Origin: a virus
Reading direction: 5' to 3' (one strand)
DNA length: 64,000 nucleotides
Virus record (IMG/VR): IMGVR_UViG_3300033149_004284
Coordinates: 22,288 to 86,287 of that record
Position numbers and translations under genes: made by a program. Below are positions 13,077-49,313 of this stretch, piece by piece (the first letter of the stretch is position 1; each line of letters begins with the position of its first letter). Below the pieces are notes generated by a model. It saw only the letters and a program-made list of their open reading frames with translations, was not told where the DNA came from and searched no databases.

Positions 13077-13114
13077 TGCTATTGACAATAGAGTGCAAGC
13101 CATCCACGTTTCCT

Positions 13115-28121: not shown

Positions 28122-28193
28122 TTGTTGCGAATAGACTGATGGCGCAGGGGGCTCTGCTAAGTTGTGATAAGCTGGTCTAAGGAGATATCCATT

Positions 28194-29624
28194 ATGCCGA
28201 TTTTAGGGCGAATTGCAAAGAGACGACTGGTTGAGGCAGCGGTTCCTGTTGACGATACGGCTTCCGATACCTCTCGATGGCGCCGATTGACCGAGAAGGC
28301 CCCCAGGAACCTTTCTGACTACGACCACAAGCGAATGTTAGATATCGCCTTGTATCTCTATCGCTTCAATCCATTAGCCCATCGAGGCGTTGAGATCATG
28401 CGAGATTTCGTAGTGGGCAGTGGCATTCGTATTGAGGCCAAGGACAAATCCATCCAGTCAGTCATAGATAGGTTCTGGAACAATCCCGTTCATAAGATGG
28501 ATCGCCTGCTGGCCAGGATAGCCTTCGAGCTCAGTCTCTATGGGGAATTCATATCTCCCGCACTGGTAAACAGGCATAACGGGGATGTCGAGCTGAGTTA
28601 TATTTCCCCCCTCCAGGTCAAGGATGTCACTCTCAATCGAGGAAACCTTCTCCTGTTTGATTCAGTCGAGATCATGCCCACTGACATCTCTACCGAATCA
28701 TCGAAGCTCAAGGTCATCAACCTAGAGACAGATGTTGAGGCCCACCTCGATCCTGAGGACCCAAACTCGCCCTCCACCTATGGCTATCGAACTGGAGACT
28801 GTTTCTACTTCTCGGTGAACCGAGTAGGGGATGCCAGCCGTGGCCTGAGCGATCTCCTGGCTGTTGCCGATTTCGTAGACAGCCTCGACCAACTTATCTT
28901 CAATTCATTGGAACGCATGACCCACGAGACAGGCTGGCTCTGGGATATCGAGATGCAGGGGGCCTCAAATGAGCAATGCCAGCAGAAAGTCGCGGAGTTA
29001 GAGGCCGCTCCTCCCCGACCGGGCTCCTTCCTAGTCCACAACGAATGGGTCAAGTGGAACCCCATGAAGATCGGTCTGGAAGCCGAGAACGTCACTGACG
29101 AGTCTCTTCTCATTCGGAACTATGCCCTGGGTGGCATGGGAGTTCCCGTTCACTTCTTCAGTGAACCGCAAGGAGCAGGTCGTGCTGTCGCTGAGTCCAT
29201 GGCTGCTCCAGCCTATCAATCTCTGGAGTCTCGCCAGTCTGAAGTTGAGGGCTTTGTTCGGGAGATTCTGGACTTCGTCATAGACCAGAAACTCGTTCGG
29301 AAGATGCTAGACAGCAACTTGGATCGAAGCTATGATGTGATCATGCCAAAGATTTCCCTCCGCAATCTCCAGCGTACAGGAGGGGCCATGAACAGGACGG
29401 CGCAGGCTCTCAAGACCGCCCAAGACGAAGGTTGGATCGATAGCGAGCAAGGAAAGAAAGTCTTTGTGGCCATGCTGGAGCAACTTGGGCTGGGTGTAGA
29501 CCTCACTCCTAGCCAAGAGTTGCCAGGTGTCGCTTCTAGCCAAAGGCTACCGTCTGATGTAGGTTTTAGCCAGGCAGATGTAGGTGTCGCTTCTAGCCAG
29601 GAACTGCCCAAGGAGCTGCGCTGA
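28194..29624 (+). CDS. portal protein
   Basis: position after TerL; YRFNPLAHRGVE..DFVVG, ELSLYGE, RGLSDL, GVPVHFF; ATG at 28194 after AAGGAG. Confidence 0.85.
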   Translation: MPILGRIAKRRLVEAAVPVDDTASDTSRWRRLTEKAPRNLSDYDHKRMLDIALYLYRFNPLAHRGVEIMRDFVVGSGIRIEAKDKSIQSVIDRFWNNPVHKMDRLLARIAFELSLYGEFISPALVNRHNGDVELSYISPLQVKDVTLNRGNLLLFDSVEIMPTDISTESSKLKVINLETDVEAHLDPEDPNSPSTYGYRTGDCFYFSVNRVGDASRGLSDLLAVADFVDSLDQLIFNSLERMTHETGWLWDIEMQGASNEQCQQKVAELEAAPPRPGSFLVHNEWVKWNPMKIGLEAENVTDESLLIRNYALGGMGVPVHFFSEPQGAGRAVAESMAAPAYQSLESRQSEVEGFVREILDFVIDQKLVRKMLDSNLDRSYDVIMPKISLRNLQRTGGAMNRTAQALKTAQDEGWIDSEQGKKVFVAMLEQLGLGVDLTPSQELPGVASSQRLPSDVGFSQADVGVASSQELPKELR

Positions 29625-31102
29625 TGCAAATTGGTCTTTTGCTTAGCTCCAAACACCATGCTGAGATGTTAGCATCTGGTAACAAGACCATGCTCATCAG
29701 AGCGAGGCGTTTCTACCGCTATGTCCGCATACCAGTCTACCTGCTGGCTGATCAGAAGTGTTATGCCAAGATGGTTCTTGGGTCTCCCCAAAAAATAGAC
29801 CTGAGTGGGTTTAGAGCATTGCGGAGTCAACACAGAGTAACTGAAAAGGAAAGGGAGCAACAGTGGCCTGACGAACTAGACTTCTACAGCTATAAAGTCC
29901 AGGTTCTCGAAACTTACGATCCGCCTAAGAAGGTTAAGTTCCCTCCCACCTCTCAGGCTTGGGTACGCCATTGGGAATGGTTAGACCGCCCTCCCAAGGA
30001 GCTCCATCTTGAGAAGGTGGCTGACCTAGAACACTATCATCCGTCCAAGATTCCTGACACAGCACGCGGCAGTGCTATCCTCAGGGACGACGCTCGGCTA
30101 CTCTTGGCCTACTGGTCGTCAAAACGGTCAGGCAAGGATGTCAAATATACCTACGACCTCTTGGAGCAGAAGTACACAGCCATCCTCCGTGAACTCGTTC
30201 GCAGGAGAGCAGCTCAGTTCAGTCCTCAGAACTATAAGCCTCATGCTAGAGATCTATTTGACAGAGCTGCGCGAACCCTCCAGTTGGAAGGTATTACTGT
30301 CCCACTCAGAAAGAGCTCGCATCTGAAAGGACTCACAGCCCTCCAGAATATGACGGATAAGGAACTCCTGGCTCACCATGACCACTTGCATCAAATGTAT
30401 GCTGAGGGCAAAGTGACTAAGGAGAGCATCGTCAATGCTCATATCTTTGCAGTCCAGGCAATGAGACATAGGGGCCTATCTCACAAGATCGAGGATGACC
30501 TTGACAGGGAGCTCCAGGGATCTGCTGCATCACGCCTCGTCCCCTTCGTCATCATAGACTCAATGGTTTGTCAAACTGGCTCTTCTGTCTACGACATCAG
30601 GCCCCCTCACGACTGCGACTTAGTGATACGCAGCGATGAGGAAGACTCCAAGATGACCGCAGCTATCCTTAAGGCCGTTAACCTCCCTCCATCAACCATC
30701 CACCGTATTTATGAACCCAGAGGCCCCTCCTTTGACTATGTGGCCCTCCTGGATTATGTAGCAGTGCCAGTAGCCTGGAAAGGTACCTGGACGAAGAAGA
30801 GCATCCGCCCCGAGGACATCCCCGAACACTCTTGGGCTATCTATCGGCAGTTGCCTCCTGCCGTCTTAGTCCACGACCCCTTCGTCACTCAAAGCAACAA
30901 TACTTTCTACGTCCGAGATGCTCGCCGCAACACTGGCATTGAGATCAAGCTCACCAGGCTGTTAGCGGCTAACCTCTCCTTCCGATGGCGCGGGGAGGAC
31001 GAAGCCATGGCAGGAACGCCGCTCTTTAAGTCTTTCCTGATTCCACATATACCTCTGAGGAGGGCCAAAGTCGATGAGCCTTTCTTCCGAAGATACTACT
31101 GA
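29624..31102 (+). CDS. multidomain protein: ASCH/PUA-like, helical His-rich, nucleotidyltransferase-like
   Basis: HAEMLASGNKTMLIR (ASCH-like); ELLAHHDHLHQ..IVNAH..MRHRGLSH; QTGSSV..HDCDLVIR (Pol-beta GS..DxD). Confidence 0.6.
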   Translation: MQIGLLLSSKHHAEMLASGNKTMLIRARRFYRYVRIPVYLLADQKCYAKMVLGSPQKIDLSGFRALRSQHRVTEKEREQQWPDELDFYSYKVQVLETYDPPKKVKFPPTSQAWVRHWEWLDRPPKELHLEKVADLEHYHPSKIPDTARGSAILRDDARLLLAYWSSKRSGKDVKYTYDLLEQKYTAILRELVRRRAAQFSPQNYKPHARDLFDRAARTLQLEGITVPLRKSSHLKGLTALQNMTDKELLAHHDHLHQMYAEGKVTKESIVNAHIFAVQAMRHRGLSHKIEDDLDRELQGSAASRLVPFVIIDSMVCQTGSSVYDIRPPHDCDLVIRSDEEDSKMTAAILKAVNLPPSTIHRIYEPRGPSFDYVALLDYVAVPVAWKGTWTKKSIRPEDIPEHSWAIYRQLPPAVLVHDPFVTQSNNTFYVRDARRNTGIEIKLTRLLAANLSFRWRGEDEAMAGTPLFKSFLIPHIPLRRAKVDEPFFRRYY

Positions 31103-33024: not shown

Positions 33025-33050
33025 CCTTAGATACTTAGGGGTCCCCAACT

Positions 33051-35986: not shown

Positions 35987-36022
35987 GACATATAGGAGAA
36001 GACTTACCTGTGAGGTGAAGGA

Positions 36023-36661: not shown

Positions 36662-37326
36662 GAACTCTGTGGATCGTTATTCCAGCAAAAGATGAGGCTG
36701 CTACTATTGCAGACCTAGTTGCCGAAGCCGCCCACTACGGAACGGTGTTAGTAGTTACCAGTGGGCCTTCAGACGATACTGGCCCAAGAGCTGCCAGCGC
36801 GGGAGCCCAGGTAATCTACAACGGCCAGAGCATTGCAGGAAAGATAGTCACTGGCTGGCAGAGAGCCCTCGACAACAATGCGACACGAGTCATAGTCATG
36901 GATGCAGGCGGATCGCATAGGCCATCAGATATCCCCCGTCTCCTGGCAGCAGAGGCTGACATCGTAATAGGCAGTCGGTTTGTGGCTGGAGGCCAATATC
37001 ATGGCAGATCGTGGCGCAGGGTATGCAGTCAAGTCATGGCTCTGCTCTGCAACCTAGCCCAACCAGGTAAACAGGTCCATGACTGGTCTAGCGGCTTCAG
37101 GTGTTATTCGGTAGAAGCAATTGGGCAGCTACTAGCCGTCCATTATAAATCTGATATGCACGCTTGGCAAATCGAGGTGCTAGGCTGGGCTAGGCGCTTG
37201 CACCTTTCAGTTGAGGAAGTCCCTATACAGTATACTGCTGGGCACTCGTCTCTCTCCTGGGATGGGGCTCTCAGGGCTCTCAATATATTGTTAGACATCT
37301 TGCTCCGCAGGTGGGTAGTCGGATGA
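36658..37326 (+). CDS. GT2, DPM1-like glycosyltransferase
   Basis: VIPAKDEA, VMDAGGSH.P, VIGSRFV.GG, DWSSGFRCY, EEVPI. Confidence 0.85.
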   Translation: MRTLWIVIPAKDEAATIADLVAEAAHYGTVLVVTSGPSDDTGPRAASAGAQVIYNGQSIAGKIVTGWQRALDNNATRVIVMDAGGSHRPSDIPRLLAAEADIVIGSRFVAGGQYHGRSWRRVCSQVMALLCNLAQPGKQVHDWSSGFRCYSVEAIGQLLAVHYKSDMHAWQIEVLGWARRLHLSVEEVPIQYTAGHSSLSWDGALRALNILLDILLRRWVVG

Positions 37327-38396
37327 TATTCTACCTTGATACATACATTACTGACGAGCCTCTCCATCCTGCGTTTGTTTGGCCAAACAGGGAGATCAGG
37401 AACTCCTGTCCCCAGTATAAGATGCCACGGAGAATAGATATCACAAAGTACACGCTTGCGAGTTATAAGATGATTCCGTGGACACATGTTGTCATCGCAT
37501 ACGATGTTGCTGATAAGGATGATGAAAGCACGTTCCTGGACTTTGTGCAAGAAGTTTTCCCAGACGCAGATGTTAGTCGGCCTCGCTCCTCTAACCAGAA
37601 GACGTACAGGGCAAGAGTGGAGCAAGTTTGCAGTTTTGAGGATGACTTCATCTTTTATGCACCTAACAACGATCATCCCCTCATAGCAAGCAATCTCAAT
37701 CACCTGCCCAAGTTACTCAAAAAGGCTTCAAGGTTCTCACAAAACTACCCATTTGTCTCCGTTGTCTACTCGCACTTCAGTGAGTTCGTCAACGCGCCTG
37801 TCGTTGGGAGTCCTTTCTACAGACAGTTCTCTAGCGACTCACGCATAGTAGAAGACGACGAGATTGCTACGAGCTTTGTGAGATTCAATGGCGACAACTC
37901 TTCTATCCAGATCGTCAATAGGAATCTCCTGCAACACTGGTTTTGCTCACATGATCTCGGTGATGCCAGAATCATCAGAGCAGAAGATGTTCGCAGGTTT
38001 CTTCCAACTCCTAACCAGTTGATGATAGTGCCCAAGAAGGAGCTCTGTGCGCACTTTGACGGCTACTCGCATACAACTGGTATCACTAAGATCAGTCCTG
38101 ACCAGATTCCTCCTCTATTCATTCCAACAGGGTTCTTCGACAGCTCGATTCGGATCGCCTACGGATATCCAGAATACCGAGATGGCTGGGTAAACATAAA
38201 CCCTTCTGCGAGGGATTTCAGTTTCCGCGACCGAAAGACGGGCACAGATCTGAAAATTGGTCTTCAGGACATACCTCTTTTCTGGAAGAGCAGAATCGCA
38301 GAAATAGACATCAATGTGAATGCCGACCTCGAGCGAATTAAGGAGGGCAGAGAGAAATACTTTGAGACAGTTCGTAACCCCTGGAGGAAAGCCTAG
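37323..38396 (+). CDS. hypothetical protein, possibly GT-A fold
   Basis: 357 aa; IFYAPNNDH at a DxD-like position, ELCAHFDGY; cluster context. Confidence 0.5.
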   Translation: MIFYLDTYITDEPLHPAFVWPNREIRNSCPQYKMPRRIDITKYTLASYKMIPWTHVVIAYDVADKDDESTFLDFVQEVFPDADVSRPRSSNQKTYRARVEQVCSFEDDFIFYAPNNDHPLIASNLNHLPKLLKKASRFSQNYPFVSVVYSHFSEFVNAPVVGSPFYRQFSSDSRIVEDDEIATSFVRFNGDNSSIQIVNRNLLQHWFCSHDLGDARIIRAEDVRRFLPTPNQLMIVPKKELCAHFDGYSHTTGITKISPDQIPPLFIPTGFFDSSIRIAYGYPEYRDGWVNINPSARDFSFRDRKTGTDLKIGLQDIPLFWKSRIAEIDINVNADLERIKEGREKYFETVRNPWRKA

Positions 38397-38971
38397 TGAT
38401 CAAGTTGCATATAGGCTGTGGCCCCAGAGTGCTAAAGGGATGGATAAATATCGATCTCAAGTTCACTCCTTACCAGGCGTACCTGAAATACTACACTGAC
38501 AAGTACTACCCAGAGTCCGCTAGGGGCGACAAGTCAGATTTTCTTGCACTAGATGTGTCTAGGCAGCCTTTGCCCTTTCCTGACAATTCGGTAGATGTCG
38601 TCTTCCATGAGGACTTCCTTGAGCACCTGAACCAGCGTAGCCAAGTTCTCTTCCTAGCTGATTCTCTCCGAGTCTTGAAGCCAGACTCCATTCATCGAAT
38701 TGATACGCCTAACCTGTTAGCATCGATGCGCGATCACTCTAATTTCTCCCTTGGCTTTCAGGGTGTCTATGTCCATGAGTGGGATAAGTCCAAGCATCTC
38801 AATGTATTGACCCCTAGCTCGCTTGAAGAGATGGCTCTTATGGTTGGATATTCAACAGTAGTCTTCACAGGTAGAAACCAAAGTGCGTCGCCTCTGATTC
38901 CGCCTGAGTATCGCCCTGATCCAAGAGATCGGCCCGAGAACGGAAACATCTTTGCAGATTTGGTTGCTTAG
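38396..38971 (+). CDS. class I SAM methyltransferase
   Basis: KLHIGCG..GWINID, LPFPDNSVD..EDFLEH, RVLKP..RIDTP. Confidence 0.88.
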   Translation: MIKLHIGCGPRVLKGWINIDLKFTPYQAYLKYYTDKYYPESARGDKSDFLALDVSRQPLPFPDNSVDVVFHEDFLEHLNQRSQVLFLADSLRVLKPDSIHRIDTPNLLASMRDHSNFSLGFQGVYVHEWDKSKHLNVLTPSSLEEMALMVGYSTVVFTGRNQSASPLIPPEYRPDPRDRPENGNIFADLVA

Positions 38972-38981
38972 GAGTAGCGCC

Positions 38982-39860
38982 TTGAGGATATTTGTTCTTC
39001 CTGTGTCGTCTCAGTTTCAACCTCCTCCCATGAAGATTCTCTATCCTCCTCACAACAAGCGAGACTACGGCATTGAGCAAGACTTCGCTCAGCATCTCAC
39101 AGAGCCTTCTAGTGACTGGACGATCGCAGAGTCTTCTGACGTTGCTGATTGGCATTACCTTCCTATCTACTGGACACGTTACCATGTGACACATAACTAT
39201 GCCAAGACTGGCCTAGAAGCACTTCAGCGTGAAGTTGCCCGAAGAATCATTGACGACAAAAGGACCTTTACAATTTGCCAGTATGATGATGGGCCTTTGG
39301 TAGACCTTGGTAGAACTGTGCAGTTTCTAGGGTCTCGCAAAGGGGAAGAAGGCATCGACGTCCCTCTTCTTTCCTATCCTCATAAGCTCCCTGCAGTTGA
39401 TCCCCCTAAACAGTGGTTAGCGTCTTTTGCAGGGAGACTCCGAACGCACGAGGTTCGCGCAGACATGCAGCGTGTTCTGGGGCCTCGCCAGGACATTGAC
39501 ATTCAGGACACACGCAAAACCAGTAGATTCTTTGTAGACTTGATCCTTCGGTCGTATGTTTCCCTCTGTCCCAGGGGATGGGGTGGCTCGTCTTTTAGGT
39601 TTTATGAATCTATGCAACTGGGAGTAGTGCCCCTTCTCATTGGCAGCATAGACACCCGCCCCTTCAAACGTTTCCTGAACTGGAGTATAATGAGTCTCTA
39701 TGCTCGCACGGCCGAGGAAGCAAATGTGTCCCTCGACTCCCACACTCTGACAGAATTGCTAGAGATGGGGCGATGTGCCAAGAAAGCCTGGCATCAAGAT
39801 CTATCGTTTGGGCACTGGCACAAGTATGTGTTTCAGGAATTGGAGGCTCTATGGCATTAA
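38982..39860 (+). CDS. exostosin-family (GT47-like) glycosyltransferase
   Basis: LASFAG...H.VR, SLCPRGWGGSSFRFYESMQLGVVP; TTG start after AGGAG. Confidence 0.85.
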   Translation: MRIFVLPVSSQFQPPPMKILYPPHNKRDYGIEQDFAQHLTEPSSDWTIAESSDVADWHYLPIYWTRYHVTHNYAKTGLEALQREVARRIIDDKRTFTICQYDDGPLVDLGRTVQFLGSRKGEEGIDVPLLSYPHKLPAVDPPKQWLASFAGRLRTHEVRADMQRVLGPRQDIDIQDTRKTSRFFVDLILRSYVSLCPRGWGGSSFRFYESMQLGVVPLLIGSIDTRPFKRFLNWSIMSLYARTAEEANVSLDSHTLTELLEMGRCAKKAWHQDLSFGHWHKYVFQELEALWH

Positions 39861-41305
39861 AGCACCATCAGCACTCTCTACAGGCCGAGGCGGTATGGGG
39901 GAAAGCCTACGGCGTGTTTGATCGAATTGTTCAGTTGAGAGGTTTCAGGACTGGCGTCGAGGTTGGCGTTGCTTTTGGAGGGCACATAGAAGCACTTCTC
40001 AACATCCCCACTATTGAGAAGGTCTATGGAGTTGATCCCTATCAGCAAACAGGAACTAGCAGCTCCTTGGGCCTCTCGCAGTCTGAGATGGATACCCTCT
40101 ATCTCTTCGTTCTGAACAGACTTGCCCCGTTTGGCGATCGTTACCAGCCTGTACGAAAAAGCTCGGTAGAGGCATCGTCTATCATCCCGCAGGAGATTGA
40201 TTTCGTCTACATAGACGCTGACCATTCCTACCAGGAAGTTATGGCGGATCTCTGTGCTTGGTTTCCCAAAGTACGCGAAGGCGGGATAATTGGCGGCCAT
40301 GACTATTCTCATCCTGACTTGCCAGGAGTTAAGAAAGCCGTGGATAGATTCTTCAGTCGGTTTGCTCAGCGCGTTCACTCACTAGGCGAATATGTCTGGT
40401 GGATAGAGAAGAAGATGCCCAGCATCAGCTTCGTATTGCCTGCATACAACTGCGCTGAGTTCGTCGAGGAGTCTGTGAAGTCTATTCAGAAGGGGAACTT
40501 TGAAGATGGCGACGAGCTCATCATTGTTGACGATGGCTCATCTGACAATACCCTGATGATTTTGCAGAGACTGGCCGCGTACTATCCCTCAATAAGGCTT
40601 CTCAAACACGACAGTAATAGGGGCGCATCAGCAGCCAGGAATACAGCGATAGCCAGTGCCAAGAACTCCCTACTCTTCAACCTAGACTCAGATAATATCC
40701 TAGTGCCAGGCAGCATCCCCAAACTCAAAACATATTTGATTAGCTCCAATGCTGATATAGCAGTGTTCGAGGAGACGCGTTTCTTTAGAAACGGAACTGG
40801 CCAGATAACACACAGCTGGAAGTATGGCCCAGGTCTGTTGACTCTATCCGACTGCTTGGCTGGCCAAATAACTCCTGGGGCTAGTGGGAACTATATGTTC
40901 ACTAAGGAGTCCTGGGCCAAAGCTGAAGGTTACCCTGAGTTCGCAAAGACCTATGAAACCTGGGGATTCGCCTTCAGGCAGCTAGCCACAGGCTCCAAAA
41001 TGATGGCAATGCCCGACTCTTTCTATCTCCATAGGTATGGCCATTCGTCACTCTGGGTGCGAGAAGGAGGAAATCGGAACGCTTCTCGGAAAACTCTAAA
41101 GATGATTCTGCCCTTTCTTGGCCTGCTTGACTACAAGGACGTTGAATACATAATGAGCCACAAGGAGACCTGGCTTACTAACTTATCTCAGCACCCAATA
41201 CGAGTCAAGGGGAGCGCTCCTGGGAATTCGGGCAGCATCAAACTCCAGAGCCCTCCACTTGACTATATGGAGCTTTTGTGTCAGAATATAGACGAGGAGA
41301 CATAA
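39851..41305 (+). CDS. SAM methyltransferase-GT2 fusion
   Basis: GVEVGVAFG, DFVYIDADHSY, GGIIGGHDY; then SFVLPAYN, VDDGSSD, GASAARN, LDSDN. Confidence 0.92.
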   Translation: MALKHHQHSLQAEAVWGKAYGVFDRIVQLRGFRTGVEVGVAFGGHIEALLNIPTIEKVYGVDPYQQTGTSSSLGLSQSEMDTLYLFVLNRLAPFGDRYQPVRKSSVEASSIIPQEIDFVYIDADHSYQEVMADLCAWFPKVREGGIIGGHDYSHPDLPGVKKAVDRFFSRFAQRVHSLGEYVWWIEKKMPSISFVLPAYNCAEFVEESVKSIQKGNFEDGDELIIVDDGSSDNTLMILQRLAAYYPSIRLLKHDSNRGASAARNTAIASAKNSLLFNLDSDNILVPGSIPKLKTYLISSNADIAVFEETRFFRNGTGQITHSWKYGPGLLTLSDCLAGQITPGASGNYMFTKESWAKAEGYPEFAKTYETWGFAFRQLATGSKMMAMPDSFYLHRYGHSSLWVREGGNRNASRKTLKMILPFLGLLDYKDVEYIMSHKETWLTNLSQHPIRVKGSAPGNSGSIKLQSPPLDYMELLCQNIDEET

Positions 41306-41892
41306 TGATTGACTACAAGACAACCGCTGGTTTCTCCCTGACACTTGAGGAGCGTGAGTTCCTCAAAGACTCTGCTGAGGGCTCTGGCTCCATTGTCAGT
41401 ATCGAGTCTGGCCCCTGCGCTGCGCTATGGTGCTTCAGGGCAGGCGCGCCTGAGTCTTCCATCTACAGCGTGAAGGAGCAAGGATCGATCATAGATGGTG
41501 ATCCAGGAGTAACTATCCTTAGTGGCTTTTCTGACTTCCCTGGAAACTCTGTAGACCTGCTCTTCATAGATGGCTCACATGCTTTCAAGGATGTTCTACT
41601 CGACTTAGTTACTTGGCAAGATAGCATCCCGCTGAAAGGCTTAGTGGTCCTTCACGACTATGAGCACAACAATATGCCTGAAGTTAAGCTGGCTACTGAG
41701 TTCTGGCTCAAGAACGTCACCAGGAAAACCTGGCAGCCGATTGAGGCTCCTGGCTCTCTCTTTGCCCTCAGGCGTATTGCTCGTGGGAGGAAGCCAGCTG
41801 TTGTCCCCGTAGAGGCCCTCAAGGAACAGCACGCTGAGCAAGAGAGCGTATCAGAGAAGGCAACCGGCCAAGTGGACCCTAGACAGGACTGA
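41305..41892 (+). CDS. SAM methyltransferase (Methyltransf_24-like), degenerate motif I
   Basis: VDLLFIDGSH, GLVVLHDY. Confidence 0.75.
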   Translation: MIDYKTTAGFSLTLEEREFLKDSAEGSGSIVSIESGPCAALWCFRAGAPESSIYSVKEQGSIIDGDPGVTILSGFSDFPGNSVDLLFIDGSHAFKDVLLDLVTWQDSIPLKGLVVLHDYEHNNMPEVKLATEFWLKNVTRKTWQPIEAPGSLFALRRIARGRKPAVVPVEALKEQHAEQESVSEKATGQVDPRQD

Positions 41893-41903
41893 GGAGGGAA
41901 TAG

Positions 41904-42233
41904 ATGAGGTACTGCCCCATGTGCGACATCGCTTTGGGCTCACCTGAAGCCCACAAGACCGAATGGTTCTATCATTCAAGGGCAGTTACTATCGTTGAAG
42001 ACCTTGATCCCAAGGGCTATGTCCTAAGGCTCTTGGGCGTACCTCGCAAACATTTCGACTGTGAGGCTACAGGGGAGCTTATAGCAGCGATCCGCCAACA
42101 GACCATTGAGATAGCCTTAGGTGTAGCGCGGGCAATATGTCTGGAGCGAGGGCTAGCAATTGCCCAGATCGATACTGAGCATCATTCATTCAGAGATCAC
42201 TGGCATCTCCAGGTCTGTCTGAGTTTGAGGTGA
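41904..42233 (+). CDS. HIT-like nucleotide hydrolase/transferase
   Basis: CPMC, VPRKH, HWHLQ (HxHxQ). Confidence 0.6.
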   Translation: MRYCPMCDIALGSPEAHKTEWFYHSRAVTIVEDLDPKGYVLRLLGVPRKHFDCEATGELIAAIRQQTIEIALGVARAICLERGLAIAQIDTEHHSFRDHWHLQVCLSLR

Positions 42234-42239
42234 AAACCT

Positions 42240-45200
42240 ATGTCTGAGCTTCTGATTCGCAAGGTCGGCAACATCTGCTTTGTGCTGGACGAGAAGGGCA
42301 AAGATGTCTCAGGTGACTATGCAGACAGCCTTAACCAGTACAGAGATCTCGGGTTGTCCTCATTCTCCCTGTCAGCGCTGGGCTATGAGAATTCTCTCTA
42401 TCCTACTGACTGCCTGGAACTATCAGGGGAGAGCCTGGCTGAGCTCTCCCATCAGGAACGGGTAGACTTGTTCCTCACGGCTCTTCCCCAAGACCAGGAT
42501 ATCTCCTTCCGGCAATCGAAGCAAGTAGAGCTATTCAAACCCTTCACTCCGCTGAAGGCCCGCACTGGCTATGGTCTCTATGAGTTCAATAACAAACAAG
42601 ACCTCTGGGAGATGTGGGCCAAGGAGCGCATAGAGGCCAAGCGACCGATTGCTGTTCAGGCCAAGTTTGACGGTATCCGGCTTATCGTATTCAGGAAGGG
42701 CGACAGAGTTCAGATGCTCACCGAGGATAAGAAACGAGACCGTGCTTCTATTCTCCCTGAAGTCGTAGCAGAGATTAAATCTCTGCCAGGCGACTCCTGC
42801 ATACTGGATGTGGAAGCTGTCATTTGGCAGGAGAATCAGCCCATTCCTCGTCGTGAGATGATAAAGATGGTTGTGGGCAAAACACCTCTCAGGGGTGAGG
42901 ATATCCACATTAATGTCCACGATTGTCTGCTAGTAGATGGTAAGCCTCTTAACACTGAGCCCTACTCGGTGCGATTGGCAGCTCTTGACGAACTTCTCCC
43001 TAAGGATAAGAAGTTTCTCAGAAAGGCTCAAACTTGGGTAGCTAAGACTAAAAGCGAGTTCCTGTCTGCCCTCGACAAGGCATCTGCTTATCCTGGCTCA
43101 GAAGGAGCTATGGTCAAAACCTTGGATAGCGACTATCCTATTCGGGGTCGTACCCGAGAAGAGACTGCTGACTGGGGAAAGTTAAAGTTGGCGGTGGAGC
43201 TGCATTGCAAAGTCATAGGGCGTACTCGCAAGCCTAATCCCTGGCCTCCTGACGAACGCCCCAAACGCAATCTCCAGGGTGATGAGGCCCTTAAAGCCTT
43301 TCGTAAGTTGCAGAAAGGCTCCAAGACTTTCTACTATCGCTGTGCCCTTCGGGACGGTAAGAAGCTCATCCCTATCGACTCTGAGCACAAGCTGACTCCT
43401 GGAAACCTCTCCCTCAAGTGGGACGCCGAACACGAGGGCGGAGTCTGGAAAGGCACTGACGACCCTGAAATCTGGGAGATGGCTAAGGGTTTTGAGAACA
43501 GGCCCCGAGGCGACTGGGCTTATGGCAATACCTACGCCGTTAAGTACGACCCTCCGCCGAAACTGGGCGATATCATCACAGTGGCTCCCATCCTGATGCG
43601 AGCCTGGAAGGACAACAGCACTACTCACTACTCCTGGACTTTTCCTAGATGCAAAGAGTTTGATCCTACCCGTACACAGCCTGACACCGTCCAGGACGCA
43701 GAGCGCATCGTGGCAAAGTCTCCCAAGTCCATCCGCAAGCATGTTCGTCCTGGGCCTTTTGGGCATCCTGGAGGCAAAACCGTCTTGCTGAAGCATATCC
43801 TGCCTAGGATACCTGCCCATGAGACTTATTGTGAGCCTTATGTCGGATCAGGGGCTGTATTCTTCGCCAAGCCCAAAGCCCACAAGTCAGTTCTAGGGGA
43901 TACAGACCCTGAGATAATAGCAGCCCTCCGCTTTGTTCGGGACGCCTCAGCAGAGGATATCGAATGGCTGCGCAAGCAGAACTGGCAGCCGTCCAAGGGT
44001 CGCTGGCAGTTCCTCAAGGATCAAAAGCCAGTCCGCAAACGAGAGCGCTTCTATCGCTTTAGATACCTGGATATCAACTCCTGGGCTCACTCGCCTGCTA
44101 AAGGCTTCGCCCGTAGCAACCAGCCCGCATCCATGAAAGCCGAAATGGATAAGATCAGGGCAGGCCAGCAGAAACTACGTGGCAATGTCTCTATCGTCCA
44201 GCAAGACGCCTTCAAGACTATGCGGGAGAATGACTCACTGTCTACTTTCCACTACATTGATCCGCCCTATTGGGGCAGTGGTGACCTTCAGCCCTATGGT
44301 GGTAAGGCCCCTGACCCCGAAGCCCTTGTTAAGTTCCTCAAAGGACTACGCGGCAAGTGGCTACTATCCATGGCAGACAAACCTAGAACGCGCAAGGCCT
44401 TCAAGGATTTCAATATCAAGTCAGTCTCTCGTCAAATGACTTATACAGTTTACTCGCGTAAGACTAAGGCTGGTCAGCCAACACGCACTCGCCGTGAGCT
44501 CCTAATTGCTAACTACGACTTCGCCGATCTCCACGAAGCCGTAGTTCCTCCTGGCGAAGGCGAGAAACCCACCCACAAGAAGCAGCGTGCTGAGGCTGAG
44601 CGCAAGTTCGGCGATCCCTACATGGTTCACCAACCTCCCGACAAAACCTTTCCCTTTGTCTATATGCACCATGAGCGGGGTATCTGGACTCAGGCTGAGC
44701 TTGTGGGCCTACGCGCCGCACTCAAGAACGCCAGACGATATCCTGATCTTATTCCTGACATCTGGAAACGTTACAAGCCTGTCGTCCTAACGACTAGCCT
44801 AGAGTCTCTCAGGCGAGACGCAGAGGCAACCTCCGAGAAGCGGGGTGATGTCACTGCTGCTGTCCACAAGCACCTTGACGAGAAACCTCCCAAAGTTCTT
44901 CCTTCCAACAACAAGATACTCAATGTGGGCAATGTCCATGGTGACTGGCGAATGCGCTCTCCAGAGGGCGAGTTCCTCATTGGGTGGACCCTCTCTACCC
45001 CGTCGGTTGTACTCCAGTTTGCCGACGGCAAAACCGTCTATCCTATCAGGGACAGATTCCTTGAGAACAAGGAGGGCGACAAGATAGTAGCCTACCGCAA
45101 GTGTCCTAATCCACTCTGTGACGAGGAGCGCTATTTACGCCTAGTTGAATCCAATCCTCATGAGAGCGTGTCCCAGATGTTCGCCAGCGAGGAGGGCGAA

Positions 45201-46271
45201 ATAATTCTCGGTTCCCAACGTCCGTTAGCTATGCGATTGGCAGAATCAGGTGCAATCCAACTCTTGGCAGGCTTGCCAGAGAATCTTACTCAGGAATCGG
45301 TTCAGCCGATGGTATGGCTCACTATCGTCAATCCTAAGCGTCTCGTCTATCAGGTCTCAGCTGGAGGCGTAGGTGCAACGGCGAAGACTGGCGCTAGGTT
45401 CATCTTTCGGGATGCTGGGAAAGTGGCATATGGTTGCCAAAAGTCGGATTTCCATGAGGGGTTTTTCTGGTTCAACCGCCACAAAAATCTCTCAGGCCGC
45501 TGGGGAGTCCAGGAGCTAGCAGGTAGGCCTGAGTACACAAAGCTCGGAACTGAGGGTAACTGGTGGATGGTCAATCATGTCGTCAAAGACCCTCGGCCCT
45601 ACATCCTCCGCTACTCCCGTGATGCTAAGGAGCGGCAGGCTAAAAAGGAACATCTCAAACACATCATCTGGAACGCCGATGTCCTCAAAGTTCTCAAGGC
45701 TGACCCTCATGGCCGCAAATGGCTAGGGCTAACCTCCCAGAAGAAACTAGACGAGAAGTGGGCTGAGTTCTCTGCTGGCAATGGAGAGTTTCGCCTTCGC
45801 AAATCGCTCAGCTTCAGCTCGAAGCTCTTTCACTCACCGGCCGCCGAAAAGCAACTGTTTGTCTATGGGGCAATTCTCATCCCAGGCAAAACTGACGCTC
45901 AGGGCCACCATGTTACAGCAATAGAGGTCGCTAAGGCCATTCGCACAATGGGGGACATTGGTTTCGATATTGAGCATTCTGAGAAAGTCTCTCCCAACGA
46001 TCTTAGGCTTACCCAAATCTTCCAAGCCCCAGTTGGGTTCAAGATTGGCAGCCAGCATTTCAAGAAAGGCACTGCTATTGCCGAGATCGCTGTTCTGTCG
46101 CCCGCGATTCGCAAGCGTGTTCTCTCAGGTGAGATCAGGGGCTTCTCGATCTCCGGGAAAGGGGTTATGGACAACTCGGCAGGCCTGTACGACATTAAGA
46201 TTCAGAAGATCTCCCTTGTTGGGAGCCCTGCTATCAAAGAGGATTTCATAATAAAGGTTGAGGACGTGTAA
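42240..46271 (+). CDS. polyprotein: ATP-dependent DNA ligase, Dam-like adenine methyltransferase, LigD-type phosphoesterase, XkdF-like protease
   Basis: QAKFDGIR, ILDVE, EGAMVK, WGKLK; HPGGK, EPYVGSGAVFF, IDPPY, ELLIANY; FVYMHHERG..HGDWR..LIGWT; VYGAILIP..DAQG..IEH..GEIRGFSISG..ISLVGSPA. Confidence 0.85.
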   Translation: MSELLIRKVGNICFVLDEKGKDVSGDYADSLNQYRDLGLSSFSLSALGYENSLYPTDCLELSGESLAELSHQERVDLFLTALPQDQDISFRQSKQVELFKPFTPLKARTGYGLYEFNNKQDLWEMWAKERIEAKRPIAVQAKFDGIRLIVFRKGDRVQMLTEDKKRDRASILPEVVAEIKSLPGDSCILDVEAVIWQENQPIPRREMIKMVVGKTPLRGEDIHINVHDCLLVDGKPLNTEPYSVRLAALDELLPKDKKFLRKAQTWVAKTKSEFLSALDKASAYPGSEGAMVKTLDSDYPIRGRTREETADWGKLKLAVELHCKVIGRTRKPNPWPPDERPKRNLQGDEALKAFRKLQKGSKTFYYRCALRDGKKLIPIDSEHKLTPGNLSLKWDAEHEGGVWKGTDDPEIWEMAKGFENRPRGDWAYGNTYAVKYDPPPKLGDIITVAPILMRAWKDNSTTHYSWTFPRCKEFDPTRTQPDTVQDAERIVAKSPKSIRKHVRPGPFGHPGGKTVLLKHILPRIPAHETYCEPYVGSGAVFFAKPKAHKSVLGDTDPEIIAALRFVRDASAEDIEWLRKQNWQPSKGRWQFLKDQKPVRKRERFYRFRYLDINSWAHSPAKGFARSNQPASMKAEMDKIRAGQQKLRGNVSIVQQDAFKTMRENDSLSTFHYIDPPYWGSGDLQPYGGKAPDPEALVKFLKGLRGKWLLSMADKPRTRKAFKDFNIKSVSRQMTYTVYSRKTKAGQPTRTRRELLIANYDFADLHEAVVPPGEGEKPTHKKQRAEAERKFGDPYMVHQPPDKTFPFVYMHHERGIWTQAELVGLRAALKNARRYPDLIPDIWKRYKPVVLTTSLESLRRDAEATSEKRGDVTAAVHKHLDEKPPKVLPSNNKILNVGNVHGDWRMRSPEGEFLIGWTLSTPSVVLQFADGKTVYPIRDRFLENKEGDKIVAYRKCPNPLCDEERYLRLVESNPHESVSQMFASEEGEIILGSQRPLAMRLAESGAIQLLAGLPENLTQESVQPMVWLTIVNPKRLVYQVSAGGVGATAKTGARFIFRDAGKVAYGCQKSDFHEGFFWFNRHKNLSGRWGVQELAGRPEYTKLGTEGNWWMVNHVVKDPRPYILRYSRDAKERQAKKEHLKHIIWNADVLKVLKADPHGRKWLGLTSQKKLDEKWAEFSAGNGEFRLRKSLSFSSKLFHSPAAEKQLFVYGAILIPGKTDAQGHHVTAIEVAKAIRTMGDIGFDIEHSEKVSPNDLRLTQIFQAPVGFKIGSQHFKKGTAIAEIAVLSPAIRKRVLSGEIRGFSISGKGVMDNSAGLYDIKIQKISLVGSPAIKEDFIIKVEDV

Positions 46272-46351
46272 GGAAAAGGAGACCTTCGCCTTAGCCATCA
46301 TCTGGGAACTTGAATGAGGAAAAGACATGGCCTTAGATTCCTTCCTAGGAC

Positions 46352-46380
46352 TTGACAAGCGCAGCATAACCGGTTATAAT
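46352..46380 (+). promoter_or_regulatory. consensus sigma70 promoter upstream of the capsid gene
   Basis: TTGACA-N17-TATAAT. Confidence 0.9.
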
Positions 46381-46634
46381 GAAGATAACAAAGCTCATCC
46401 CATAGTGCGGGCCTGGATTAGCCAACTAATTCAGTCTAAAGAGCTAGCCCTGGTCCTAGACAGGTATGAGTTTCGGCGTATCGATGTGACGCTCTCAGCT
46501 AGTGGAGGTAAGGCGGTACTCAAACCGACGATCTCGTTTCGCTAATCACATAACCGCTCGCAATAGGCGGAGCAACTGTTTTGTAGTGAGGAGGAGACTA
46601 CAGCCTCCTCTCTTTCATTCTAAGGGAGGTAACA

Positions 46635-49313
46635 ATGGGTTTCACATTAAAGGTGAAAGGTTGGATTGAGGACTTCGTGAAGGCGGCTGAGGCGTCCAAA
46701 GAGGAGATTCCCAAGGCGGCCCAGGGTAGCTTCACTCGCCTGAAACTACTCTCGGCCCAGAAGCCTGTCAAGGATGTGGAGTCTAGCCGCAACTCCGAGG
46801 GTCTGGAGAAGCTTCAGGCATTCCTGAAGAGTGTGAAGGGCAAAGCCAAGTTGGAGACTGTTGCCAAGAAAGCCATTGACAACCTGACCGAATACTTTGG
46901 GAAGGACTATGGGGCAAAAGGGGAGGTCGCAAAAGCTTCCACTTATGTCTGCCCAAAGTGCGGCTACAAGGGCAAGCCTGACAAAGACGGCAACTGTCCC
47001 AAGTGTGGCACTAAGATGAAGGTGGATTACGGGAAAGCCTACGGCGACTACGGCAAGACCAAGTATGAGGATTATGGCAAGACCGAAGTTGCCAAATCTG
47101 AGCCCCATCCCCACGGCAAGCATGTCGTCTATTGCCCTAAATGTGGCTATGAGGAGACAGTCGAGGCTGGCGTCAAGGCTAAGGACAAGAAGTGTCCCAA
47201 GTGCGGAACTCGGATGCGGGCTAGGGAAATAGGTGAGCGGCGCGAGGCTGTCCACTTCAGGACCCTAACTGGCCGACTTCTTGAAGCTGTTGAAGGCACA
47301 GAGGGTAGCCAGTGGGAAGTCACTCTCATCGAGGCAGGCGTCTCTGAGAATCGCACCAAGTACAGTCTCCCTGTTCTTGAAAAAGCGCTTCCCCTCTTCG
47401 ATGGTGCTAAGTGCTTCGCTGACCATTCAACTGCCTCTGAGCGTCGCGAGCGCCCTGGACGCTCTATCAGAGACATCGTAGGCTGGTTTGAAAGCCCGAA
47501 AGTTCTCGGCGACGGAGTCAAAGGAATTGGGGCTGTCTTCAACATCCTAGAATCAGAACGATGGTTTCGAGATAAAGTCGTAGAGGCCTGGGAGCGAGGC
47601 AAACGAGACCTCATTGGCTTCTCGATCAGCGCCATCGGCAGACAGAAACTGATTCGCGAGGAGGACAAACTCCTCAAGGAAGTCGTTTCGATTGACAAAG
47701 TACAATCTGTAGATGCTGTCACTGAGCCTGCAGCTGGTGGCAAATTCGTGAAAATGCTAGAAGGGAAGGAGGCAGAAGAAGTGAGCCAACTAGATATTCT
47801 GAACACCATCACACTGGAGAATCTGAGAGAGGTGAGGCCAGACTTGTTCCCTGAGCCTGCTTCTGAGCCAGAGCCTGATTTGGAGCCTACGCCTGAGCCA
47901 GAGACTGAACCATCTCCTGATCTTTCTCACCTCACTGAGGCGGTCAAAGAGATCGAGAGCCTAAAGGCTACCCTGGCTGAAATGCAGGATACGTCTCGGA
48001 AGACGGATCTCAAGGCGCAGCTTGACTCGGCGCTTCAGTCCAGCGGTCTTCCCAAGCCTGTCCAGGATAAACTTGGGCGACGCTTCTCTTCTCTCGAATT
48101 CACCTCGGAGACTCTCACTGAGGCGATTCGCGAGGAGAAGGAAGTCTTAGCCCAAATTCTGCCACCAGAGCGTCGTTACTTCCCATCAATCAAGATGGGC
48201 GAGAGCGAGCGGGACAAGATTGACAAGGCTATGGATGGTCTCCTGGAGGGCGAAGATATCGACGGGATTCCTCGCTTCAGGAATCTGCGTGAAGCCTACT
48301 CGATAGTCACTGGTACACCGATTCTGGATGTCAGAGCTCAGCATATCCTGAATGCGTCGTCAGCCTTTGACTCGTCAGTTGGTTTCTTGCGAGAGGAGAT
48401 ATCGACAAGCACTTGGACGAACGTCTTCGGAACCAGCATGACCAGGAGACTGCTTAAGGAATACCGCAAACCTGGCTATGATGACTGGAAGAAGATTTGC
48501 TCCAGCGTCGAGACTCTCGACAACATGAAGTCCCAGGAGCGAGTCCGCATAGGTGGCTATGTTGCCCTCAGCTCGGTTTCCGAGGGAAGCACCTACACAG
48601 AGCAGTCGTATGATCCTCCAAATGAGATGCAGAACTACACCCCGACCAAAAAGGGTAACTTGGAGAGTATCACACTGAAAGCTATCGCCAACGACGACCT
48701 TGGTGCTCTACGGCGAATTCCCAAGGCTATGGCCTTTGCAGCCAAGGTGGGTGTCTACAAGGCAGTTTTCGACGTTCTGACCACGAACGCTGCAATGAAC
48801 TATGATTCAGTGGCTCTGTTCAACGCGGCCAGTCACGGGAACTATGGGACAACTGCTCTTAGCTATGAAGAGCTCACAAGTGCCAAGAATGCTATGCTGG
48901 AGCAGATGGAGCCAGTAGGGTCTGGTGGAACTGAGCTCACCTATCTGGACGTGGAGCCCAAGTACTTGCTGGTTCCACTAGAGCTCCGAGGCACAGCCTG
49001 GGACCTCATCAATTCGCCAGTTAGGGCACTTGCCAGTTCCTTCAACGCAACTCAGCCCAACATGCACTATAAGACGCTTGAGCTGATTGTAGTGAGGCAC
49101 TGGACTGATTCTAACAACTGGTACTTGATCGCAGACCCTTCATTGATTGCAACCATCGAGGTTGGTTTCTATGGTTCTCAGGAGCCCGAAATCTTTACCG
49201 AGTTGGCCAATGCTGGGTCGAATTTCACTGCTGATAAGCTCCGCTACAAGATTCGTCATATCTATGGGGTAGCAGCTCTTGAGCATCGTGGAATGTACGC
49301 CGAGATCGTGTGA
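46635..49313 (+). CDS. Zn ribbons, prohead protease, scaffold and Mu gpT-like major capsid protein fusion
   Basis: two CPKCG..CPKCG ribbons; FADH, RSIRDIVG, IGFSI, SVDAVTEPAAGG; ANDDLG, PKYLLVP.EL, WYLIADP, IEVGF, YKIRHIYG. Confidence 0.9.
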   Translation: MGFTLKVKGWIEDFVKAAEASKEEIPKAAQGSFTRLKLLSAQKPVKDVESSRNSEGLEKLQAFLKSVKGKAKLETVAKKAIDNLTEYFGKDYGAKGEVAKASTYVCPKCGYKGKPDKDGNCPKCGTKMKVDYGKAYGDYGKTKYEDYGKTEVAKSEPHPHGKHVVYCPKCGYEETVEAGVKAKDKKCPKCGTRMRAREIGERREAVHFRTLTGRLLEAVEGTEGSQWEVTLIEAGVSENRTKYSLPVLEKALPLFDGAKCFADHSTASERRERPGRSIRDIVGWFESPKVLGDGVKGIGAVFNILESERWFRDKVVEAWERGKRDLIGFSISAIGRQKLIREEDKLLKEVVSIDKVQSVDAVTEPAAGGKFVKMLEGKEAEEVSQLDILNTITLENLREVRPDLFPEPASEPEPDLEPTPEPETEPSPDLSHLTEAVKEIESLKATLAEMQDTSRKTDLKAQLDSALQSSGLPKPVQDKLGRRFSSLEFTSETLTEAIREEKEVLAQILPPERRYFPSIKMGESERDKIDKAMDGLLEGEDIDGIPRFRNLREAYSIVTGTPILDVRAQHILNASSAFDSSVGFLREEISTSTWTNVFGTSMTRRLLKEYRKPGYDDWKKICSSVETLDNMKSQERVRIGGYVALSSVSEGSTYTEQSYDPPNEMQNYTPTKKGNLESITLKAIANDDLGALRRIPKAMAFAAKVGVYKAVFDVLTTNAAMNYDSVALFNAASHGNYGTTALSYEELTSAKNAMLEQMEPVGSGGTELTYLDVEPKYLLVPLELRGTAWDLINSPVRALASSFNATQPNMHYKTLELIVVRHWTDSNNWYLIADPSLIATIEVGFYGSQEPEIFTELANAGSNFTADKLRYKIRHIYGVAALEHRGMYAEIV

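Follow-up and report, generated by a model that had tools for sequence, protein, structure and literature searches.

A phage head-module polyprotein joining DNA ligase, adenine methylase, a LigD phosphoesterase fold and an XkdF-type peptidase, probably for loading into the virus head

Polyvalent proteins were described by Iyer, Burroughs, Anand, de Souza and Aravind in 2017 as proteins predicted to be packaged and delivered with the DNA (PMC5512222). They combine unrelated enzyme domains, including DNA methylases, in one chain, are encoded among portal, terminase and capsid genes, and always have a capsid-protease-type (assemblin-like) peptidase as the final domain (PMC5512222). Neither XkdF nor an ATP-dependent DNA ligase or a LigD-type phosphoesterase is mentioned in that paper. 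The large enzymes P1 DarB of the Dar system, T4 Alt and the N4 virion RNA polymerase are head-packaged and injected, and the methylase/helicase DarB shields incoming DNA against restriction (PMC5512222). Their packaging was shown by experiment, whereas the polyprotein described here, likewise a large enzyme, is known from sequence and models. DarB, Alt and the N4 polymerase are also targeted otherwise, by Dar partners or a capsid-targeting sequence (PMC5512222), and contain no ligase, phosphoesterase (PE)-like domain or XkdF. A further comparison is offered by bacterial LigD, the ligase of non-homologous end joining, which has POL, PE and LIG domains and is accompanied by Ku. Mycobacteriophages Corndog and Omega reportedly encode Ku and use the host LigD for genome circularisation. 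This reliance on LigD-type joining after entry suggests what a delivered ligase/PE pair could plausibly do. Corndog and Omega bring the Ku gene and borrow the host ligase, whereas the phage studied here supplies a ligase and a PE-like domain, and neither Ku nor a LigD polymerase partner was found in its contig or bin.

The window analysed is a stretch of 64,000 nucleotides from this uncultured phage. At 42240..46271 (+) it encodes a polyprotein of 1343 aa (P0001), which starts with ATG, is preceded by the Shine-Dalgarno sequence GAGGTG at 42227-42232 and remains open without a break across 4029 nt. Four recognisable domains follow an N-terminal region in the order ligase, Dam-class methyltransferase, LigD-PE-fold domain and C-terminal XkdF peptidase. 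Ligase, D12/Dam methyltransferase and XkdF score above the curated cut-offs of Pfam and the PE-like domain was recognised by its fold in an AF2 model, so that all four domain calls of an earlier note on this DNA are borne out; the motifs it had quoted lie where it had placed them and read KFDGIR, DPPY, HHERG, HGDWR, GWT and GFSISG. The N-terminal region (residues 1-133; 42240..42638, +) has no match in Pfam, PHROG or NCBIfam and shows 55-71% identity in close relatives.

The nucleotidyltransferase domain of the ATP-dependent DNA ligase (residues 134-316; 42639..43187, +) matches DNA_ligase_A_M (PF01068) over its whole length with an E value of 6e-22 and 78.7 bits against a cut-off of 26.2. The motif I lysine is K142 of KFDGIR (codon 42663-42665), and the further motifs III, IV and V are LDVE (E192), SEGAMVK (E288, K293) and WGKLK (K314, K316). 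These motifs are retained by 45-54 of 50-55 relatives; the counts are 49/50 for K142, 49/51 for E192, 52/54 for E288, 54/54 for G289, 53/55 for both K293 and K314, and 51/55 for K316. The region behind the ligase core (residues 317-500; 43188..43739, +) contains invariant columns in alignment A1 and accompanies the core in every case, as judged from jackhmmer envelopes. It occupies the position expected for an OB domain; the PDB ligase alignments end near residue 334, and for the OB fold and motif VI no Pfam profile or PDB alignment reaches beyond about this residue. No other ligase is encoded on the 86-kb phage contig, so the polyprotein ligase could be the general ligase of the phage.

The Dam/D12-class N6-adenine DNA methyltransferase domain (residues 508-766; 43761..44537, +) was identified with MethyltransfD12 (PF02086; residues 510-734, E 1e-17, 65.3 bits against a cut-off of 22) and phrog_56 (E 1e-37), and its matches in the PDB are 7m6b, DpnM, T4 Dam and E. 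coli Dam. It contains the glycine-rich SAM-binding motif EPYVGSGAVFF and the motif IDPPYW with the DPPY codons at 44259-44270. Within the family, D-P-P is kept in 27/27 sequences and the tyrosine in 23/27.

The divergent LigD-PE-fold domain (residues 803-1118; 44646..45593, +) gave no Pfam or PDB sequence match, and neither the polyprotein nor 22 relatives reached the Pfam gathering score of LigD_N (PF13298). An AF2 model of residues 790-1195 (pLDDT 84) matched LigD 3'-phosphoesterase structures only, namely 3p4h_A (Z 11.7, rmsd 2.1, 117/118 residues aligned) and 3n9b_A (Z 9.8), the next chain being at Z 3.3; the same top specific matches were obtained with Foldseek. By this model, the LigD-PE beta-barrel fold is confirmed. 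The two insertions that the earlier note had described in the domain are real. The first, helical and of about 74 residues (819-892; 44694..44915, +), was delimited by model secondary structure and alignments A1 and A2; it separates the two metal-binding histidines and is 57-58% identical in close relatives. The second, of about 53 residues (963-1015; 45126..45284, +), has a pLDDT below 50 at model residues 173-230, shows 31-36% identity in close relatives and is missing in most relatives. Whole PE-like alignments gave no significant hhalign match to LigD_N; the core with both insertions cut out matched it with a probability of 86.6% (E 4.4e-6). A helical tail or linker (residues 1119-1195; 45594..45824, +), seen as helices in the model and in alignment A1, leads from the PE fold to the peptidase.

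The motifs of the domain are HHERG (H811, R813, G814; H811 codon 44670-44672), HGDWR (H900, D902, R904; codons 44937-44951) and GWT. In the hhalign alignment H811, H900, D902 and R904 fall on His42, His48 and Asp50 of LigD in Pseudomonas numbering, which we take to be the metal ligands, and on Arg52. As in LigD these residues are conserved, with H811 in 88/88, H900 in 107/108 and D902 and R904 each in 106/108 family members. The positions of His84 and Tyr88, presumably the phosphate-contacting residues of LigD, are taken by Gln1022 and Trp1026, an equivalence read from the hhalign trace and not from superposed coordinates. Position 1022 is Q in 73, E in 9 and H in 8 of 104 members, and Trp1026 is kept in 102/105. 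Both His84 and Tyr88 are said to be essential in Pseudomonas LigD according to mutational studies of that enzyme. The LigD PE-like designation of the earlier note thus holds for the fold, the metal ligands and the arginine and breaks down at the Gln/Trp pair.

Judged from its conserved residues, 3'-phosphoesterase chemistry of the domain is likely, though not assured. With His at position 1022 in only 8/104 members, with Gln1022/Trp1026 in place of His84/Tyr88, with no LigD_N Pfam match and with a fold interrupted by two large insertions, the domain might instead bind DNA ends or be a differently specific metal enzyme that shares only the LigD-PE fold. We consider this possible but rather unlikely: 98-100% of members retain the equivalents of the three metal ligands and of Arg52, the family has near-invariant residues of its own, E1073 (110/111), K1068 and H1072, that could complete an active site, and a DNA ligase resides in the same chain in 60/112 members, as in LigD. 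Inteins typically sit at functionally critical sites, and the family member P0065 carries an intein at the conserved GEVGA motif, which also argues against an altered function.

The likeness to LigD is that an ATP-dependent ligase and a PE-fold domain (Z 9.8-11.7) share one polypeptide. Unlike LigD, the phage chain has no polymerase domain and its ligase precedes the PE-like domain with the methylase between them; the PE-like domain itself departs from LigD in the features just described. Matches of the family profile to PDB ligases reach an E value of 1e-23 and place the ligase closer to archaeal/Lig1-type enzymes (1e-23) than to M. tuberculosis LigD (8e-8). Of the LigD framing first given to this protein, the joining of ligase and PE fold in one chain therefore stands, but not the kinship of the ligase.

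The C-terminal domain (residues 1196-1343; 45825..46268, +) is an XkdF-type serine peptidase (Peptidase_S78_2, PF14550), with a Pfam match at residues 1200-1308 (E 9e-8, 32.6 bits against a cut-off of 24) and a match to phrog_3017 'head maturation protease' at positions 41-155. Its predicted catalytic set consists of D1219, H1246 and S1303 of GFSISG (S1303 codon 46146-46148); Asp, His and Ser are kept in 40/40 family members, as in canonical XkdF/phrog_3017 protease-scaffold genes. Identity of the domain among close relatives is 62-79%, on a par with the enzyme domains. The 32.6 bits of P0001 compare with 70-107 bits in other lineages, and two Trp residues retained by most relatives are absent from it. 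In contrast to canonical XkdF genes, about 1200 residues of enzymes precede the peptidase, and the scaffold half is missing from the polyprotein. In the loci L005, L011 and L015, XkdF does occupy the canonical prohead-protease slot: downstream of it come an ORF whose match to phrog_3017 is confined to the scaffold part and then the capsid gene; this arrangement of protease and scaffold is not found for XkdF in our phage.

The head-module position claimed in the earlier note holds: the polyprotein gene lies between the portal gene (28164-29624) and a protease-scaffold-capsid gene, and the same order of portal, polyprotein and capsid recurs in 25 IMG/VR loci. An ORF of 72 codons separates it from the capsid fusion gene (892 aa; 46635..49313, +), which was identified by Pfam (Phage_capsid_4 at its end), by an NCBIfam protease/MCP fusion family (2e-51), by phrog_15531 (1.7e-22) and by AF2 models. 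In the product, Zn ribbons (about residues 100-205) are succeeded by a T4 gp21-like prohead protease (about residues 203-364; 47241-47726), a Pro/Glu-rich linker, a scaffold and an HK97-type major capsid domain (586-892). The protease model matches 5jbl_A with Z 12.3, and its BFVD matches are prohead proteases. That the capsid gene has its own gp21-like protease is, on this modelling, a new observation. XkdF is thus not the sole head protease here, nor is it needed for head maturation, because scaffold and capsid are joined to a second, canonical prohead protease. In the sister loci L007, L018 and L020 the ligase-MTase-PE polyprotein persists without XkdF, so the cargo is independent of the XkdF anchor. 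For both reasons, the case for prohead targeting through the protease end is weaker in this phage than in lineages with XkdF in the canonical slot. The post-portal gene (492 aa; 29624..31102, +) has relatives, detected by jackhmmer, that form the N-terminus of the polyprotein in L003, L004, L007, L015, L016, L018 and L020-L022. For its residues 1-125, an Atlas structure search gave ASCH as a tentative lead.

In a survey of 112 cluster representatives carrying the PE-like domain, the domains repeatedly occur as (MTase)-ligase-(MTase)-PE-like-(XkdF); 60 proteins contain the ligase and 38 contain XkdF, which is the last domain in all 38. Minimal proteins of PE-like domain and XkdF exist as well. 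Swapping of cargo ahead of a C-terminal XkdF had been predicted in the earlier note, and it was seen among the homologues: P0008 contains a Nudix domain, the 2838-aa chain of L009 five C5-methylase stretches and L023 a UDG-like domain. In no cultured phage was the PE-like domain found.

Two or more disparate effector-type domains in one chain, a virion-module context and, where a peptidase is present, its assemblin-like type and C-terminal place are the hallmarks of polyvalent proteins. The polyprotein shows them with its four domains, its gene between portal and capsid, and XkdF last in 38/38. Unlike in the examples of Iyer et al. (2017), ligase and PE-like domain are the recurrent core cargo of the family and the capsid protein of this phage carries a further protease; the polyvalent design was predicted in 2017, the ligase plus PE-like cargo was not among the predictions, and our literature search found no paper on it. 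We favour, with a probability of roughly 0.52, the reading that the polyprotein is a packaged-and-delivered polyvalent head-module protein whose enzymes act on incoming DNA, having probably been strung on a capsid-type protease for loading into the virus head. HK97- and T4-type prohead proteases act inside the procapsid, and P1 DarB, T4 Alt and the N4 virion RNA polymerase illustrate that heads can take up and eject large enzymes. We infer that the polyprotein would be made late, along with portal and capsid, and that most likely it would co-assemble into the procapsid through its peptidase end or as an entire chain; there XkdF, the capsid-fused gp21-like protease or both may cut the chain between domains. 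The freed enzymes would remain beside the packaged DNA and accompany it into the host. In the host cell, according to their presumed activities and specificities, the three enzymes would act before host nucleases do: the PE-like domain by removing blocks from 3' ends, the ligase by closing nicks or joining the ends of the genome, and the methylase by modifying GATC-like sites. Nudix domains fused to a capsid-processing serine peptidase have been interpreted likewise (PMC9503650). Methylation after DNA entry needs host SAM and time, which counts against delivery, and the low XkdF score and the two lost Trp residues also count against this reading.

Alternatively, the polyprotein could be a late cytoplasmic DNA-maturation enzyme that is absent from the virion, with XkdF only cutting the chain or being a remnant. 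Its enzymes would then act on concatemers before or during packaging, sealing nicks, cleaning ends and methylating progeny DNA for the next host, much as T4 and P1 Dam-type methylases act late on progeny DNA. The presence of the sole ligase of the contig in this chain, the XkdF-less polyproteins of L007, L018 and L020 and the separate prohead protease in the capsid gene fit such a role. They have to be set against the strictly C-terminal position of XkdF and its canonical slot before scaffold and capsid in other lineages, where the procapsid must take in the fused domains, as well as against the minimal proteins of PE-like domain and XkdF and the fusion of post-portal gene relatives to the ligase, that gene's slot being typical of packaged minor head proteins. 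We regard a purely cytoplasmic role as unlikely, though worth serious consideration.

The position and architecture that support packaging would equally suit a protein that is packaged but not delivered, which acts in the procapsid or at the portal and is then degraded or left in the empty capsid. It might deal with ends or nicks in the DNA while packaging proceeds or once it is over, or serve as internal scaffold-like mass, and HK97-type proteases do digest themselves and the scaffold, the fragments leaving the head. This appears improbable: the strict conservation of catalytic residues in three nucleic-acid enzymes speaks against a mere structural role, and a sealed capsid holds no ATP or SAM, although a ligase that had been adenylylated beforehand could close a single nick.

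An assembly chimera or a frameshift artefact, for which nothing was found in support, can be dismissed in view of the 4029-nt frame with Shine-Dalgarno sequence and ATG and of full-length relatives on independent contigs. P0003 is 68% identical to P0001 at 100% coverage and L001 is 71% identical, each with the same domain order on an independent contig. P0002-P0004 and L001 (1342-1511 aa) come from independent assemblies and are alike in domain order, which is shared by dozens of more distant relatives.

The polyprotein gene (42240–46271, plus strand) is a real open reading frame of 1343 codons, beginning with ATG and preceded eight bases upstream by GAGGTG. Pfam searches identified DNA_ligase_A_M at residues 134–316 (E 6e-22), MethyltransfD12 at residues 510–734 (E 1e-17) and Peptidase_S78_2 (XkdF) at residues 1200–1308 (E 9e-8), each above the curated cut-off, and these calls were also supported by PHROGs, NCBIfam and PDB sequence searches. 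The ligase, adenine methylase and XkdF domains described in an earlier note are thus backed by profiles, and every motif quoted there was found at its place. Motifs seen by eye at the domain junctions, [KR]-S-P-K after the ligase and L-x-K-S/A before XkdF, are candidate cleavage motifs on which we base no claim. The fusion is neither an assembly chimera nor unique. Relatives with the same domain order were recovered from independent assemblies, among them the metagenome proteins P0003 (1342 aa, 68% identity at 100% coverage), P0002 (1511 aa) and P0004 (1507 aa), and the IMG/VR locus L001 encodes a full-length relative with 71% identity. The full fusion was absent from 50,697 deposited phage genome records.

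Among 115 collected proteins, the PE-like domain, which had been likened to the LigD 3'-phosphoesterase (PE), is present in 112, the ligase in 60 and XkdF in 38. XkdF ends no more than 15 residues from the C-terminus in all 38 cases, and the order (methylase)–ligase–(methylase)–PE-like–(XkdF) is nearly invariant; 11 minimal proteins consist of the PE-like domain and XkdF alone. The survey of homologues also revealed the swapping of cargo ahead of XkdF for which the earlier note had proposed to look. P0008 carries a Nudix domain, locus L023 a UDG-like region, and the 71%-identical P0002 and P0004 two small extra domains, while a 2838-aa polyprotein (L009:2876–11392) contains five stretches of C5-cytosine methylase along with other methyltransferase domains, which are followed by ligase, PE-like domain and XkdF. 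This recurrent rule, cargo upstream and capsid protease last, offers a simple predictor of virion-loaded proteins in metagenomic phages and is also worth trying for loading chosen proteins into capsids. At two loci (L014:8417–11465 and L019:9680–12728) adjacent genes each encode an XkdF-type domain, the first ending a 556-aa protein of PE-like domain and XkdF and the other beginning the next protein of 461 aa.

The PE-like domain (approximately residues 790–1195) gave no sequence match in Pfam or in the PDB, the latter searched by phmmer and with a family profile, nor did 22 relatives in Pfam. Full-length hhalign comparisons with one LigD_N protein and with the LigD_N alignment were not significant. 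An AlphaFold2 model based on 22 relatives (pLDDT 84) is confident except in one variable insertion; compared with 48,161 PDB representatives, it matched only two chains at Z ≥ 5, both of them LigD 3'-phosphoesterase domains. These were 3p4h_A (Z 11.7, rmsd 2.1, 117 of 118 residues aligned) and 3n9b_A (Z 9.8), followed by a chain with a Z of 3.3, and the 3p4h and 3n9b entries also ranked first in Foldseek. Two insertions split the fold, one helical (residues 819–892) and one variable (residues 963–1015), and when both were cut out hhalign aligned 121 columns with the LigD_N alignment (probability 86.6%, E 4.4e-6). The link to LigD PE thus emerged only from the modelled fold and, once the insertions were removed, from profile comparison.

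Equivalent residues were read from the hhalign trace and are alignment-based, not taken from the model coordinates. H811 corresponds to the first metal-binding His of LigD and is kept in 88 of 88 family members, and H900-x-D902-x-R904 corresponds to the H-x-D-x-R motif (kept in 107, 106 and 106 of 108). Within the E-D-H-P-x-x-Y motif of LigD, His84 is matched by Q1022 (Q in 73, E in 9 and H in 8 of 104) and Tyr88 by W1026 (kept in 102 of 105). E1073 (110 of 111), K1068 (98 of 111) and H1072 (89 of 111) are specific to the PE-like family. Fold match and residue equivalences together indicate that the domain belongs to the LigD-PE superfamily as a divergent branch, with a predicted intact metal site and a predicted altered phosphate-binding site. 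With Gln and Trp in place of His and Tyr, it is well suited to testing how the LigD phosphoesterase works.

An exhaustive phmmer search covering 1.84 billion cluster representatives returned 98 relatives at E ≤ 1e-3 (98 clusters at 50% identity), 50 of them at E ≤ 1e-30. No match was obtained in the 50,697 deposited phage genomes (tblastn), and a scan of genome contigs with the motif pattern yielded no relative. The domain represents a sizeable unannotated LigD phosphoesterase branch without a Pfam model. In P0065, another metagenome relative, it is interrupted exactly after the conserved GEVGA motif by an insertion resembling an intein (Cys ... His-Asn; Pfam hits to the Hint domain; protein alignment A2, columns 617–773 approximately). 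A weak match to its second half (E 2.7e-7) lies on a short contig (L029, G005:C156:1714–3648) from a genome that shares its genus with the bin holding the phage contig. The ligase is nearer to archaeal/Lig1-type enzymes than to LigD, and neither Ku (PF02735) nor LigD_N (PF13298) was found in this bin, which is 85% complete. The likeness to LigD therefore lies in the paired activities and not in orthology.

The best reading for such an architecture is provided by the polyvalent proteins of Iyer et al. (2017; PMC5512222). In these, assemblin-like peptidases are always C-terminal and probably process the protein at virion assembly, and the phage-encoded forms are predicted to be packaged and then delivered with the DNA. 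A Nudix domain fused to a capsid-processing peptidase has been read likewise (PMC9503650). In neither article does XkdF appear alongside a DNA ligase or a phosphoesterase of LigD type, and a wider literature search found no such combination. By analogy, the polyprotein would be incorporated into the procapsid, its chain would be cut, and the resulting enzymes would be delivered with the DNA, whose ends or nicks the ligase and PE-like domain could then heal and seal and which the methylase could modify. We consider this sequence of joining the procapsid, cleavage and delivery the most likely course, with a probability of about one half. What the earlier note had observed is confirmed; its interpretation is partly supported, virion loading and delivery being predicted.

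The capsid gene (46635–49313, plus strand, 892 aa) bears on this question, for it encodes a protease of its own. Its product contains, in order, two Zn ribbons (approximately residues 100–205), the protease (approximately 203–364), a linker rich in Pro and Glu, a scaffold and, last, a capsid domain of HK97 type. Such ribbons ahead of a protease–scaffold–capsid fusion look unusual, and the relative at the sister locus L007 is without them. The protease matches phrog_15531 'head maturation protease' (E 1.7e-22) and shows the motifs ADH, GFSISAIG and SVDAVTEPAAGG, while the scaffold and capsid part matches an NCBIfam protease/capsid fusion family (E 2e-51). A model of residues 195–420 (AF2, pLDDT 70) superimposed on the T4 gp21 protease with Z 12.3 and rmsd 3.2 over 141 of 165 residues, herpesvirus proteases coming next, and at E ≤ 1e-3 it matched 140 viral models, of which most bear a prohead protease annotation. 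XkdF is therefore a second assemblin-type peptidase of this head module.

At the sister loci L007, L018 and L020, which have the capsid-fusion type and neighbouring genes in common with the window, the polyprotein ends at the PE-like domain and lacks XkdF. That sister phages do without XkdF, that another protease exists and that the polyprotein ligase is the only one on the phage contig all favour the main rival, in which the polyprotein acts late in the cytoplasm and matures progeny DNA; we regard this as rather unlikely. The window XkdF scores 32.6 bits, compared with 70–107 bits in other lineages, and two widely conserved Trp are replaced. It keeps Asp, His and Ser and is as conserved among close relatives (62–79%) as the enzyme domains (68–78%), which argues that it is not decaying. 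In the lineages of L005, L011 and L015, XkdF is followed by an ORF that matches only the scaffold half of phrog_3017 ('head maturation protease') and then by the capsid, so that XkdF occupies the canonical protease position there. XkdF gave two weak matches only in the 50,697 deposited phage genomes (tblastn). A predicted complex of the XkdF end (residues 1160–1343) with the scaffold–capsid part (residues 430–892) scored 0.00, which is evidence neither way. A third reading would have the polyprotein packaged yet not delivered.

If packaging and delivery do take place, the phage would bring along enzymes for DNA repair and modification that are ready for use, active in the first seconds of infection and before transcription, and hence a counter-defence layer distinct from the anti-restriction and anti-CRISPR proteins studied to date, which are expressed. 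Tentatively, a large uncultured group of tailed phages may load its capsids with a pre-charged ligase and a new LigD-PE branch, often together with variable methylases, by fusion to a capsid-type protease; once injected, the enzymes would join genome ends or heal and seal the damage done by nucleases, all before phage gene expression. This would amount to a pre-expression counter-defence at the protein level, so far undescribed.

The window is phage DNA with a plus-strand gene order from terminase to tail-spike-like genes. Separate ORFs encode the ATPase (25178–26038) and the nuclease (26574–27506) of the large terminase, with a 162-aa ORF (26101–26589) in between; related loci have a single, undivided terminase gene of 490–610 aa. 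The portal (28164–29624) and a post-portal gene of 492 aa (29624–31102) follow, and after the capsid gene come the tape-measure gene (54697–59130), other tail genes and the tail-spike-like genes, all on the plus strand. An additional glycosyltransferase (50645–51808) lies amid the tail genes. A second DNA methyltransferase (10147–11547, minus strand; phrog_67, E 2e-50) is located in the early/replication arm alongside a helicase (3577–5184) and a clamp-loader-like gene (12162–13268).

In 25 IMG/VR loci, the polyprotein gene lies downstream of terminase and portal and upstream of the capsid gene. In many related phages, the ligase polyprotein has as its N-terminus a relative of the post-portal gene product, and at L018 post-portal-type residues 6–194 directly precede the ligase. 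Thus, the island of approximately 11 kb within the head operon of the window (31074–42233), which encodes glycosyltransferases (GT2, GT47-like) and SAM-methyltransferases and extends from the post-portal gene to the polyprotein, appears to hold apart two segments that are joined in a single gene elsewhere. The post-portal protein had no match in Pfam, PHROGs, NCBIfam or PDB; the sole lead is an ASCH-like assignment of its first 125 residues in an Atlas structure search.

The window forms the final 64 kb of the 86,287-bp contig G000:C244, by far the longest in a bin of 411 contigs, and the first 20 kb of this contig likewise carry phage lysis and tail genes and no host flank. The link to a host has binning as its only basis; the closest match (71%) of the bin's NAD-ligase is in a MAG labelled Candidatus Eisenbacteria. 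CCGG and GATC are depleted in the phage contig (observed/expected 0.33 and 0.58). The remainder of the bin shows no such depletion (1.02 and 0.83), its own depleted words being CTAG (0.34) and GGCC (0.52), which are not depleted in the phage contig. As the depleted words differ, host assignment by binning is uncertain; restriction pressure on the phage at CCGG and GATC is likely.

Between polyprotein and capsid gene lies a perfect sigma-70 consensus (46352–46380; TTGACA, 17 nt, TATAAT; 12 of 12 positions), which falls inside a 72-codon ORF (46327–46545). Possibly this ORF is no gene but a promoter with a leader region; transcription of the capsid gene would then be stronger than that of the polyprotein.
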